The notes: generated from the letters alone by a model not told the origin. A DNA stretch of 49,972 bases from Deinococcales bacterium (GCA_031414595.1 JANNVX010000060.1:1-49972), one strand, 5' to 3'. Positions 24,194-43,265 are shown, counted from the stretch's first letter. Translations and numbers: made by a program.

Positions 24194-24202
24194 AAGTGGC
24201 AG

Positions 24203-24303
24203 GGAGACCACAAGCGACCATGCCCGTGAAGTGCGTGTTTATGGTCAAGAAGGGTCTCCTCTACAAAAACAATATCTTGTAGGGGAGGGTCTTGTACCCT
24301 CCC
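24203..24303. repeat. Pair of inverted GTAG-REP hairpins (REPIN/BIME-like); the first carries a 38-bp insert
   Basis: GGAGACC acaag [38bp] GGTCTCC T CTAC, then GTAG GGGAGGGT cttgt ACCCTCCC. Confidence 0.7.
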
Positions 24304-24333
24304 TGTAAGAGAAATGGTACTTAGGTGAAAATA

Positions 24334-26366: not shown

Positions 26367-26835
26367 AAGAAGGGCTGGGGTTGTTGGTACGCCGTCTTGC
26401 CTGATGCGCCAGAATTCGTTCACCTTTCGCCGAATGCGTCACCAAAGGCAAAAGTTTTTTAGCGGCTTGTACCCATGCACTGACTTCTTCTAGGGTTGGG
26501 TCGCGTCGCGCTAGGTTTTTAGCCGCATTGACCTCAAGCAGTTTTTGATGCAGATTTTGCGGGATTCGGTTTCGCAGTTCTTTTACGGTGTCCACCCCTG
26601 CCGCCTCAAGCAAATCCGAAAATTGTGTCCCGACCCGAGGCACGCGCATTAAATCGGCGCGATTCACCCAAGCCAGTAAGCGCTTCTCGGAGATTTTAAG
26701 TTCAAGCGCTAAATCTTTACGTCCACGCAAATGGGCGGCTTTTTTGAGTAATGCCGTAGTGGTCTTTAACCCTAGTGTCTCGAGTCTTAGTGCGTAATTC
26801 TTACCGATACCTTCAATGTCAATCAGTTTTGCCAT
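26323..26835 (-). CDS. DUF4332 domain protein
   Basis: MAKLIDIEGIG, WVNRADLMRV..VG.QFSDLLEAAGVDTVKEL. Confidence 0.85.
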   Translation of the reverse strand: MAKLIDIEGIGKNYALRLETLGLKTTTALLKKAAHLRGRKDLALELKISEKRLLAWVNRADLMRVPRVGTQFSDLLEAAGVDTVKELRNRIPQNLHQKLLEVNAAKNLARRDPTLEEVSAWVQAAKKLLPLVTHSAKGERILAHQARRRTNNPSPSFMTPQPENLPVKPE

Positions 26836-26919
26836 GTTTACCTTCAATCAGTCCTGCCATGTTTACCTTCAATCAGTCCCGCCATGTTTACCTTCAATCA
26901 GTCCTGCCATGTTTACCTT
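26831..26919. repeat. 25-bp tandem repeat, about 3.5 copies
   Basis: GCCATGTTTACCTTCAATCAGTCCY at 26831, 26856, 26881 and partial at 26906. Confidence 0.95.
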
Positions 26920-34658: not shown

Positions 34659-35279
34659 CTAGTCTACCTCTTTCCGCCCTATAAATGTAAGTTGTTCGGG
34701 AGTCGCAAAGCCCTGCACCCAAGAATCGGCTGCCACCTCGAGCCTCAAAAACACCATCCGCGAATGAACAATGGTTAAAGTAGGCACATCAATTGGCGCT
34801 CCTTTTGCCCCAAAACCAAAGCCCTTAGACAACCGTGCGCCGTTCTTCGCCACGGCAACACTGGCAAGCGCCGCCAGTTCAACTGTATCTAAATTACACG
34901 CCACACCAAAAACATGAAAATTCTCAATTCGAGCTGCCGATTTATCTACCTGCTCGAGCCGCCAAAATGCGCCAGACTTGGTTCGGTGCGGCACAACCAA
35001 GGTTTTACCCGCCTCGAGCAACAAACCGCGAAGTGGCAACAGCGCCGCTTCCATACCAACCAGCACCACCTTGGCAGACATTAAAAGTGGCTGCTTTAAC
35101 AACTGCTTGGCGGCGGCTCGAGCGCCCTTAAAATTGGGATTATGACCATGCGGCGGCAGAGGAAAAGCTGCCGCGTTGTGCTGTACCAAATCTGACCAAA
35201 TGCGTTCACGCAAAACACCGACTTTGATTGGCTCAGGGTTTACTGGCTCGGTCATCGAGTTGGAGAGCGGCTCGGTCAT
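34659..35279 (-). CDS. 5-formyltetrahydrofolate cyclo-ligase family protein
   Basis: FPLPPHGHNPNFKGA, SVAV..NGARLSKGFGF, TIVH. Confidence 0.75.
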   Translation of the reverse strand: MTEPLSNSMTEPVNPEPIKVGVLRERIWSDLVQHNAAAFPLPPHGHNPNFKGARAAAKQLLKQPLLMSAKVVLVGMEAALLPLRGLLLEAGKTLVVPHRTKSGAFWRLEQVDKSAARIENFHVFGVACNLDTVELAALASVAVAKNGARLSKGFGFGAKGAPIDVPTLTIVHSRMVFLRLEVAADSWVQGFATPEQLTFIGRKEVD

Positions 35280-37016: not shown

Positions 37017-37164
37017 GACTTCTCTCGAGGTATACCTGTGCGCTTTGGGTGGTTTATGCTGGGAAACGGTACTCCCCCTCTCTTGCCCCTAAAGCAGCAC
37101 CTTCGGGCTTTGGGCGCTCGCTACGTCGATGGGTACTCAAAAAATCAAATCAGGAGAAATTAAA

Positions 37165-41734: not shown

Positions 41735-43106
41735 AAAACCGTGGGGTGGGCGTTTTGAATCGGCTACCAGCCAACTCGTCGAGGCATTTAACGCCAGTGT
41801 GGATTTTGATAAACGCCTGGTTCTCGAGGACATCGCAGGGTCAAAAGCCCATGTCAAAATGCTCGGCACAGTCGGAATTCTCGAAGATGGCGAAGTACAG
41901 CAAATTCTCGAGGGACTAAAAAAAGTGCTGCTCGAAGTCGAAGCTGGGACTTTTCCGTGGCGTGTCGAACTCGAGGATGTGCATATGAACGTCGAGACGC
42001 GCCTCAAAGAACTGATTGGCGCAACGGCTGGCAAACTGCACACCGCCCGCTCGAGAAATGACCAAGTGGCATTGGATTTTAGGCTTTGGGTCAAGAAGAC
42101 TTGTCTGAGGGCTGCCCAGAAACTCGAGACTTTACGAGCCGTGATGCTTTCAGAAGCTGAACGCAATATGGGCGTAATCATGCCGGGTTACACGCATTTG
42201 CAAGTGGCACAACCTATTTTGGTTTCGCATTGGTTTATGGCGTACTTTGAAATGTTTTCCCGTGACATCAGCCGTTTTCACGATGCCGCCAAACGCATGA
42301 ACGAGTCGCCGCTTGGGGCTGGGGCTTTGGCAGGTACGCCGTGGCAAATAGACCGTTTCCAGACCGCCACAGAACTTGGTTTTGCTGCCCCAACCCGCAA
42401 TAGTTTAGATTCTGTTGGCAGTCGTGACTTTGCCCTCGAGTACCTGAGTGCTTGTGCAATCTGCATGGCGACCTTATCCCGATTGAGCGAAGAACTGATT
42501 CTCTACTCGAGTTTTGAATTTGGCTTTATCACCTTGCCCGATTCGCACACCACTGGCAGCAGCATCATGCCTCAAAAGAAAAACCCTGATGTTGCAGAAT
42601 TAGCAAGGGGCAAGGCAGGACGGGTTTTTGGTGATTTAATGGCGCTTTTGACTGTGGTCAAAGGCACACCGCTTGCCTACAACAAAGATTTCCAAGAGGA
42701 CAAAGAACCAGTATTCGATGCCGCCGACACTTTAGAAGTGATTCTCGAGTTGTACGCCGATATGCTGCCGCTCTGCACTTGGAATGCTGCCACCACTGAA
42801 ATGGCTGCGGCTCGAGGTTACAGCACGGCTACAGACCTCGCTGATTACCTTGCCCGCCAAGGCGTACCGTTCCGCGAAGCCCATGAAGTGGTTGGCAAAC
42901 TGGTTGGCTTGTGCGTCAAGACAAACAGGCAGCTCTGGCAACTCGAGGAAAGCGAACTACAAGCCGCACATGAAAAACTAGATTCTCGAGCGCTCGAGGT
43001 TGTGACTGTGCAATCCAGTGTGGCTGCCCGAACCAGTTACGGTGGCACAGCCCCAAAACGCGTCCAAGAAGCGATTCTCGAGGCAAGAAAACAAATCCAA
43101 CCGTAG
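41718..43106 (+). CDS. argH: Argininosuccinate lyase
   Basis: WGGRF, HTARSRNDQ, PGYTHLQ, GSSIMPQKKNPD, YNKDFQEDK. Confidence 0.98.
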   Translation: MSATNKKPWGGRFESATSQLVEAFNASVDFDKRLVLEDIAGSKAHVKMLGTVGILEDGEVQQILEGLKKVLLEVEAGTFPWRVELEDVHMNVETRLKELIGATAGKLHTARSRNDQVALDFRLWVKKTCLRAAQKLETLRAVMLSEAERNMGVIMPGYTHLQVAQPILVSHWFMAYFEMFSRDISRFHDAAKRMNESPLGAGALAGTPWQIDRFQTATELGFAAPTRNSLDSVGSRDFALEYLSACAICMATLSRLSEELILYSSFEFGFITLPDSHTTGSSIMPQKKNPDVAELARGKAGRVFGDLMALLTVVKGTPLAYNKDFQEDKEPVFDAADTLEVILELYADMLPLCTWNAATTEMAAARGYSTATDLADYLARQGVPFREAHEVVGKLVGLCVKTNRQLWQLEESELQAAHEKLDSRALEVVTVQSSVAARTSYGGTAPKRVQEAILEARKQIQP

Positions 43107-43265
43107 GGGTCAGGCACGCGACCATGCCCGCCAGGTGCGTGTTTATGGTCAAGAAGCCTGACCCGCTACCAAACGAAAATACAAATAAATTTCCCAAAAT
43201 CAAAACTATATCGAAAATGTAAAACCAATCATCTCTCACGAGGGCGAGGCATACCTCGCCCCTAC
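43103..43265. repeat. Pair of inverted GTAG-REP hairpins (REPIN-like); the first carries a 38-bp insert
   Basis: GTAG GGGTCAGG cacg [38bp] CCTGACCC ... GGGCGAGG cata CCTCGCCC CTAC. Confidence 0.7.

Follow-up and report, generated by a model that had tools for sequence, protein, structure and literature searches.

The nearest described relatives of the repeat reported here are intragenic REPs, the Rickettsia palindromic elements (RPEs) and the nested small dispersed repeats (SDRs) of Nostoc. SDRs, the subject of work by Elhai et al. in 2008, are reportedly shorter than 40 nt, show signs of mobility and occur nested and inside MITEs. Insertion sequences that target REPs, namely IS1397 and members of the IS110 and IS3 families, are said to have been described by Tobes and Pareja in 2006. 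The way in which REP-like repeats move is itself largely unproven. REPs that lie in frame within genes are documented in passages of PMC3733652, and parts of PMC8266576 report that RAYTs cleave single-stranded DNA at CT or CA beside hairpins, reading bulges and loops, and that the GTAG tag is crucial for the E. coli TnpA-REP. A full-text literature search gave no description of the unit studied here, and a full-text search for mobile elements inserted into REP loops gave no paper.

The window, by which we mean the whole stretch of 49,972 nucleotides that was analysed, is contig C60 of assembly G000 (4.49 Mb in 120 contigs, 47% G+C). It contains two copies of a 38-mer that very probably belongs to a family of non-autonomous mobile insertion elements acting at the DNA level.

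A structured 38-nt unit and its hosts in the window

An earlier note on this DNA had described two 38-bp copies that agree at 35 of 38 positions while the surrounding REP stems differ, and both coordinates and sequence were confirmed. Copy 1, CGACCATGCCCG-tgaa-GTGCGTGTTTATGGTCAAGAAG, lies at 24215-24252 (+) and copy 2, a ccag variant, at 43119-43156 (+), and every difference between them falls inside the 4-nt apical loop. With these four positions masked (N4), the 38-mer pattern matched twice in the window and not once in 100 dinucleotide shuffles. Both copies sit at the tip of a REP tagged with GTAG/CTAC, and the arms of the two REPs are unrelated (GGAGACC/GGTCTCC for copy 1 versus GGGTCAGGC/GCCTGACCC for copy 2). 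Removing the 38 nt leaves GGAGACC-ACAAG-GGTCTCC at copy 1, the clean hairpin that had been described, and GGGTCAGGC-AC-GCCTGACCC at copy 2. The loop ACAAG has its reverse complement, as already noted, in the loop CTTGT of the neighbouring REP (24283-24303), and the copy-1 host and this empty neighbour form a REPIN-like doublet. The GACCAT/ATGGTC inverted repeat attributed to the 38-mer is also present. Because the junctions are ambiguous by 1-2 nt (G or GC), frames beginning with GCG and ending with AAGAA, at 24214-24251 and 43118-43155, are equally valid. The DNA fold of the copy-2 host REP reached -16.7 kcal/mol (z -3.4), and 0 of 200 shuffles folded as well.

A third, divergent unit of the window is part of a composite structure at 37060-37140 (-), in which a short CCCCTC/GAGGGG hairpin is followed by a second stem capped by the unit and then by GGGGAGTGCGTGRGAG. 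The same composite occurs in G000 at C109:82880-82990, C105:20890-20990, C64:73330-73430 and C26:51620-51700, in one case with a T run after it. No Rfam family matched this composite. It may represent a further repeat family or an RNA, and perhaps housed the unit at an early stage. Two other tracts of the window, both unrelated to the unit, are shorter in related-strain contigs from other metagenomes, namely a 25-nt tandem repeat at 26829-26905 (gccatgtttaccttcaatcagtcct) and a 39-nt direct duplication at 35228-35268 (ggctcggtcatcgagttgga...).

When five substitutions were allowed, 37 copies were found in G000, and a profile search (nhmmer) gave 122 rows at E<=10, 78 of them at E<1e-3. A structural pattern (GC, 5-8 nt, GCCCG, 3-4 nt, GTGC, 10-14 nt, AAGA, with at least 4 paired outer bases) identified 82 strict units in G000 and none in a reversed-genome control. 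The units share one plan of 36-40 nt, consisting of GC, a variable and covarying stem P1 of 6-7 bp, the inner helix P2 (GCCC-GNNA-GG(T)GC), the returning strand P1', and AAGA with 1-2 further nucleotides. P2 is invariant, has one bulged T and carries an apical loop GNNA or GAA; between it and P1' is a one-sided, T-rich internal loop of 5-7 nt. The outer stems distinguish subfamilies (GACCAT/ATGGTC, GACCAC/GTGGTC, GACCCT/AGGGTC, GAACCC/GGGTTC, GATTCT/AGAATC, GGCC.. and GGAGCT/AGCTCC), and the stem of one subfamily contains tandem G.A/A.G.

When 38 diverse units taken from several genomes were aligned, compensatory double changes were observed at five of the six P1 pairs, and sliding the partner strand collapsed the pairing. 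Double changes occupied 41 cells of P1 as against 14.3 in shuffles, and 0 of 500 shuffles reached 41. The four P2 pairs showed no compensatory change across genera, with 95% of cells paired. Neither the initial GCG nor the final AAGA varied among the 38 units, GC and AAGA being required by the strict pattern. Sequence and structure of the unit both appear to be under selection. The 3' half of a unit is present three times at C1:38609-38691, and the unit at C105:26636 has lost an internal segment between short repeats. Arrays in which two or three units follow each other head to tail, mostly with a period of 38-39 nt, were seen at G009:C10:6624-6728, G014:C52:4498-4604 and G006:C56:38143-38218, and an array at G003:C1:26158-26291 has gaps of 39 and 66 nt (pattern coordinates throughout).

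Table 1. Units, host hairpins and insertion sites (^, insertion point; aa, amino acid positions in the protein)
Feature	Position or site	Strand	Remarks
Copy 1 of mini-hairpin unit (GCG...AAGA+A, 38 nt)	24214..24251	+	P1 GACCAT/ATGGTC and inner stem in fold
Host REP of copy 1: arms GGGAGACC (24202-24209) and GGTCTCC (24253-24259), loop ACAA^G, CTAC (24261-24264)	24202..24264	+	outer stem 7 bp
Empty neighbouring GTAG REP, GGGAGGGT-CTTGT-ACCCTCCC	24279..24306	+	inverted relative to copy-1 host REP
Third, divergent unit GCGCCCAAAGCCCGAAGGTGCTGCTTTAGGGGCAAGA	37081..37117	-	about 50 nt upstream of argG; context ...GTAGCGA(unit)GAGGGGGAGTACCG
GTAG REP hosting copy 2: GTAG (43103-43106), GGGTCAGGC (43107-43115), GCCTGACCC (43156-43164), loop AC	43103..43169	+	
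Copy 2 of unit (38 nt)	43118..43155	+	GC junction ambiguity; filled/empty alleles in relatives
Insertion sites, REP loops	GATGCTT^GTCATC, GAACACA^AGGTTC		filled/empty pairs
Insertion sites, REP stems (not loops)	GTAGGGG^CGAAC, GGGGCGAG^GCATGCC		filled/empty pairs
Insertion site, REP foot inside metH	GTCA^GGACAGAC		filled/empty pair
Insertion site, non-REP	CGGC^AGCTT		filled/empty pair
Insertion site, GAA loop of another unit	GCCCGA^AGGTGC		newly inserted in G005 (L085) versus G000
Insertion site, another hairpin	CAGC^GAAGCGTGT		filled/empty pair
Two insertion sites, probable gene	C29:49190-49210		filled/empty pairs
MetH unit	~aa 335-347		between S-methyl_trans 15-320 and Pterin_bind 410-647
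AMP-binding enzyme unit	aa 158-170		inside domain 7-397
6-phosphogluconolactonase-type protein unit		antisense	between two domain stretches
Carboxyltransferase unit	aa 76-88 of CT_C_D	antisense	

Insertion sites and orthologous empty alleles

The 82 strict units were sorted by their surroundings. Not all copies sit in REP loops, a point that the earlier note had wanted checked: 23 cap a tagged hairpin (GTAG/CTAC) whose outer stem has 6 or more perfect pairs, 9 have a weaker stem and a tag no more than 30 nt away, 13 lie in a REP-like hairpin of a 215-nt MITE, 15 are nested in or abut other units, 3 are atop other hairpins and 19 are elsewhere. Of the 82, 28 topped a perfect outer stem of 6 bp or more, compared with 2.1% of 5000 random positions. 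Among GTAG hairpins 32 hold a unit and about 527 have short loops. REP hairpins are the commonest host, and there are other hosts too.

The MITE of about 215 nt has the terminal inverted repeat TAGAGCCTCCGAAAGGTCT, target duplications of 8-9 bp and two REP-like hairpins, with the unit in the 5' arm of one of them. It is polymorphic, being present in G001 where G000 has an empty site. Its loci in G000 include C104:14650-14870, C41:95270-95480 and about 11 more (for example on C75, C88, C97 and C112), with none in the window, and it breaks contigs at the ends of C39, C40, C50 and C106. Since units ride in REP doublets and in this MITE, part of their copy number reflects hitch-hiking.

On a crude ORF map, in which several apparently intragenic cases are over-extensions of start codons, 61 of the 82 units lie outside long ORFs. 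In four genes, Pfam matches run in one frame across the unit, usually together with its REP (Table 1). The inter-domain linker of MetH is a hot spot for such insertions, with a unit at C72:45658-45694 (locus L065, C72:44654-48475), and in G000, G001 and G003 the linker accommodates, in frame, one unit together with two or three REPs. An insert of 39 nt (13 codons) occurs at this linker in G000, G001 and G003 and is missing from G007, where the REPs are retained; G005 and G006 have a different REP there, with a unit in or beside it.

Mobility of the unit is documented by 11 clean orthologous pairs of filled and empty sites between close relatives, all of them precise insertions of 36-40 nt (one of 36, three of 38, six of 39 and one of 40 nt). 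Nine of these came from a systematic comparison with G000 of 90 units at loci of G001, G003-G008, G011 and G012, two more having short flanks; the other two are copy 2 and metH. For 39 of the 90 there was no syntenic flank pair in G000, and the remainder gave 47 distinct comparisons. In 7 of these both sites were filled, in 10 the site in G000 was precisely empty, in 15 a larger segment (a REP cluster or the MITE) was absent, 14 had diverged and 1 was unalignable. One of the precise empties, L119:700, was dropped on account of its poor alignment.

At the copy-2 locus G006 has the bare REP GGTTAGGC-AC-GCCTAACC (GTAGAGGTTAGGC-AC-GCCTAACCC), and G000, G001 and G004 carry the 38 nt. This bare host, together with the ten further clean pairs, bears out the view of the element as a minimal insertion without genes. 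In G005 (L025, C672; window 43116-43157) the same loop holds a 28-nt unit in opposite orientation that lacks the inner helix, GCGACCATGCCTAGTATATGGTCAAGAA, which is either an independent insertion or the product of an inversion between the REP arms followed by deletion. Empty alleles were thus found for copy 2 and not for copy 1, where the relatives searched include none with the REP but no insert. The allele of G005 at copy 1 (97% identical) is the same as that of G000, and both REPs are absent from G001, G003, G006 and G007; since the REP pair and the unit are present or absent together, copy 1 may have arrived with the REP doublet. Related-strain metagenome contigs have the G001-type allele there (joint 24192>24323, with 47 other letters). 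Three other related-strain joints (26829>26905, 29815>29875 and 35228>35268) involve no unit, and two of them lie in tandem repeats.

The sites entered (Table 1) include REP loops, REP stems, a REP foot, a non-REP site and coding DNA. REP loops are therefore favoured and not obligatory sites, and they may, as the earlier note proposed, be targeted by structure.

Across the 11 pairs the unit junctions showed no terminal inverted repeats and no constant target duplication, any duplication being nil to very short, as had been noted. The position of the junction was ambiguous by 0, 0, 1, 1, 2, 2, 2, 2, 3, 3 and 6 nt, giving a mean microhomology of 2.0 nt against 0.69 in 20000 simulated random insertions; microhomology of at least 2 nt was present in 7 of the 11, compared with 17.6% of the simulations. 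One event of zero ambiguity (L099:641) has an imperfect 5/6 match. The letters shared at the junctions always match the unit's own end joint, ...AAGA(A/CA/TA)^GCG, and in the GCG-first frame the right flank begins with G in 9 of the 11. Targets that resemble the end joint include GAAGCG at C104:18918, AGAAGC at C29:49190, CA^GC and AA^G. In 72 non-redundant flanks, the three bases 5' of the unit are biased towards C-A-A (43, 48 and 40 of 72, respectively), and the bases after AAGA towards A/C and then G/A. The 5' flanks of the documented insertions vary (CAC, GGG, GGC(A), CGA(A), GAG, CTT, ACA(A) and TCA).

The strict type-A/B/C pattern was found in 14 of 18 other genomes of the family of G000, spread over three genera, and in none of 22 genomes from four other families of the order. 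A looser core (GCCCG-NNAG-GTGC-N11-CAAGA), whose reversed control gave one match in all genomes sampled, was present in all nine sampled members of G000's family (1-102 copies each), in both members of genus g36, which belongs to another family (11 and 39 copies), and in 3 of 103 genomes of a third family (1-2 copies each, the single match in G244 looking like chance). It had no match in 100 genomes of genus g7 or in 76 genomes of the other two families sampled. From these pattern searches, the units appear to be confined to one MAG-only family, probably of the Deinococcales, and one other genus. A scan of a contig collection with a pattern missing the main subfamily returned 12 matches, 4 of them true units (from two Deinococcales MAGs) and 8 due to chance. 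Three matches in viral contigs were rejected as chance, since they represent one shared coding sequence without stem pairing.

Both copies of an IS630-like transposase gene in G246, at L056 (C5:235221) and L057 (C9:1440695), contain two nested units that span 75 nt, or 25 codons free of stops (...WLNM, 25 amino acids, AEIEL...), and in G280 (L058, C48) units lie inside an IS1-like transposase gene, both families being assigned by reading translated motifs. The units of G197 that were examined are beside or inside IS sequence. Because of these positions the units of G246, G280 and G197 look like imported passengers, which suggests that units travel between lineages with insertion sequences.

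Candidate enzymes and modes of movement

RAYT genes, which the earlier note had connected with the spread of GTAG REPs, are represented in G000 by two RAYT-like Y1 genes. One, at C98:106767-107468 (L043 1417-2121, minus strand), lies between type I hsdM and hsdS and contains an in-frame REP and a low-complexity insert; the other is at C109:4189-4776. G000 also has one TnpB locus (C25) and two reverse transcriptases. None of the RAYT-like, TnpB or reverse-transcriptase genes of G000 is flanked by units, and no IS200-type TnpA was found there beyond the two RAYT-like genes. The TnpB locus was rejected as a source of the unit, its 3' end sharing only a 14-nt chance word with it. The suggestion that the two halves of the 38-mer are the ends of a full-length IS did not hold: 14 half-unit pairs with matching stems no more than 6 kb apart were nested or were two complete units, and no pair enclosed an ORF as one split unit. 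Nor were the hairpin arms found as ends of a small nuclease gene.

The orthologues of the C109 gene in G003 and G006 have the same REP about 42 nt away with a unit inside it, and the unit subfamilies differ while the flanks are nearly identical, so that the unit has been replaced at one site. The ORFs of RAYT orthologues in G003, G006 and G007 (L145-L147) contain REP pairs, and for two of these orthologues the matched frame includes a TGA. A RAYT homologue was detected in 47 of 301 sampled Deinococcota genomes, a tally that includes the unpublished G265, and in every one of the 10 sampled genomes that carry 24 or more core copies, a correlation drawn from few, related genomes and confounded with REP abundance. 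With either query no RAYT was found in G197 (11 copies), G246 (2), G280 (1) or G002 (1); 35 sampled genomes have a RAYT and no unit, and G013 has three RAYT matches and only 7 copies.

The reading that we tentatively put first is that the unit may be moved by a sequence- and structure-specific enzyme acting on a folded single strand. Such an enzyme would recognise the folded unit, cut both of its ends next to G (N^G, often A^G) and rejoin them at exposed single-stranded DNA, and the targets chosen would resemble the end joint AAGA(N)A^GCG. On this view the loops of hairpins, REPs included, would be favoured landing sites. The candidate would be a Y1 HUH enzyme of the RAYT or IS200/IS605 kind, of which G000 has two; among the enzyme classes covered (RAYT and IS200-type TnpA, TnpB and reverse transcriptases), the RAYT-like genes are the sole such genes found in G000. 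Against a RAYT, the unit lacks a GTAG tag and a fixed 5' tetranucleotide, and shows no lagging-strand bias, unlike IS608 and ISDra2. A simple peel-and-paste model does not predict the right-side microhomology (GC, GCG), and slippage during replication would account equally well for the tandem arrays, the repeated half units and the internal deletions. A more specific form of this reading, which we regard as possible but doubtful, is that of a self-nesting mobile unit of less than 40 nt whose signal would be the bulged hairpin and a 7-nt end joint, the folded strand being placed into exposed loops that resemble the joint, either by an undescribed enzyme activity or by a RAYT acting on a non-GTAG substrate.

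Movement might instead need no enzyme of its own, the main rival explanation, which has some chance of being correct although we think it unlikely. A nascent strand stalled at a hairpin would switch template through 1-6 nt of microhomology, copy one unit from another, tandem or folded copy, the short direct repeats (A)A^G marking its limits, and return; as hairpins stall replication, units would spread there. Junction microhomology above chance on both sides is in line with this, as are the arrays of 38-39 nt period, the tripled 3' half, the internal deletion, the lack of strand bias and the lack of a dedicated gene. It is harder to reconcile with the constancy of the unit ends (GCG...AAGA plus 1-2 nt) in all 11 events and with two clean events that have no exact microhomology. 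Moreover, GC, GCCCG, GGTGC and AAGA are fixed across genera and two families while P1 covaries, which argues for selection for a recognised sequence and not merely for a hairpin.

A recombination of the integron-attC or IS607 type, in which a tyrosine or serine recombinase would act on a folded strand or small circle and exchange strands between the end joint AAGAA^GCG and sites that look like it, is improbable; the unit would then amount to an attC that has no cassette. The targets do resemble the end joint, the units form cassette-like tandem arrays, and their hairpin is like that of attC sites in its extrahelical bases, its unpaired spacer and a tip that varies and can expand. The unit consensus, however, contains by eye no GTTRRRY/RYYYAAC boxes, 2 of the 11 events have no shared core, and a double-stranded circle of 38 bp is physically implausible.

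The covarying stem, the invariant inner helix, the GNNA-type loop and the many copies located just 3' of genes would all suit a functional structured RNA, such as a protein-binding module or an intron-like RNA, that only seems to have been inserted. This is very unlikely in view of the orientation of the units and of their variable presence between close relatives. Outside long ORFs, 21 units were co-directional with the flanking ORFs, 17 opposite, 9 in convergent-type and 9 in divergent-type positions and 5 at contig ends, and inside long ORFs 13 had the same and 8 the opposite orientation. There was no strand bias either, 41 of the 82 units being on the locally G-rich strand and 40 following the local gene majority. 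P1 contains 15 G.T pairs versus 12 A.C pairs, which is no excess. With Rfam 15, nothing in the window reached the gathering score, and the 50.5 kb of eight unit-rich loci had no match even at E<=1. The absence of strand and gene-orientation bias and of Rfam matches indicates that the unit acts at the DNA level. Units in genes also keep the frame, for which there would be no need if they were removed from RNA, for example by splicing.

Lastly, the unit might not move by itself and be a built-in part of a single REP family, carried along only when REPs or REPINs transpose or when gene conversion between REPs proceeds through their arms. The lack of a REP-only allele at copy 1 and the 13 of 82 copies in the MITE fit this, but it is scarcely credible given the unrelated host stems, the gains in REP stems, at a non-REP site, in a unit loop and in coding DNA, and the filled/empty pairs, each with the bare host kept in a relative.

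Relation to known elements

The unit, which has half the length of a REPIN, offers 11 clean before/after sites, among them a case of self-nesting and the in-frame gain in metH, with exact junctions at which enzymatic and replicative models can be tested. An enzyme behind these insertions would be one that recognises a 38-nt hairpin and pastes it into loops, and would as such be relevant to tools for inserting single-stranded DNA; without one, the family illustrates the extent to which template switching driven by hairpins can populate a genome unaided. Should the self-nesting reading be true, these would be among the smallest sequence-defined transposable units known, a natural case of insertion into hairpin loops that is tolerated in essential genes. 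Annotation is affected as well, since in this Deinococcales lineage the units add length to proteins, join ORFs together and interrupt assemblies.

The unit itself is not a MITE, since its ends, GCG and AAGA(N), are not inverted repeats and there is no fixed duplication, whereas the 215-nt element that carries it has both a terminal inverted repeat and a duplication of 8-9 bp. Like the insertion sequences reported to target REPs, it lands in REP hairpins; those, unlike the unit, are full IS elements with transposase genes. From the SDRs of Nostoc it differs in phylum and in sequence, and it has a covarying hairpin and an invariant inner helix.

Sections of PMC8266576 and PMC6006769 describe the ends of IS200/IS605 elements, with which the unit shares the lack of a duplication, an imperfect hairpin with an extrahelical T, and single-stranded targets. 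In contrast to these elements it has one hairpin and not two, no specific 5' target of 4-5 nt and no strand bias, and the single TnpB locus of G000 has no related ends.

REPs and REPINs with their RAYTs, as presented in parts of PMC3733652 (Di Nocera et al. 2013), PMC8266576 (Corneloup et al. 2021) and PMC3116915 (Bertels and Rainey 2011), resemble the unit in being hairpins of 20-40 nt without genes, mostly intergenic, present in high copy number and lacking terminal inverted repeats and target duplications. Portions of the first two of these sources add that REPs, again like the unit, sometimes lie in frame within ORFs, and that the substrate is presumed to be single-stranded, with recognition of bulges and loops. 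The unit differs from REPs in having no GTAG/CGTC tag and in departing from a near-perfect palindrome through its asymmetric internal loop and bulged T; it also lands inside REPs and inside itself, and does not flank the RAYT genes of G000. With the RPEs and intragenic REPs covered in parts of PMC3733652 it shares the character of a selfish palindrome that is in frame and tolerated in linkers and loops. RPE-1 is about 150 bp according to the same passages, as against 36-40 nt for the unit, which in addition nests within itself and has clean empty alleles in sister genomes.
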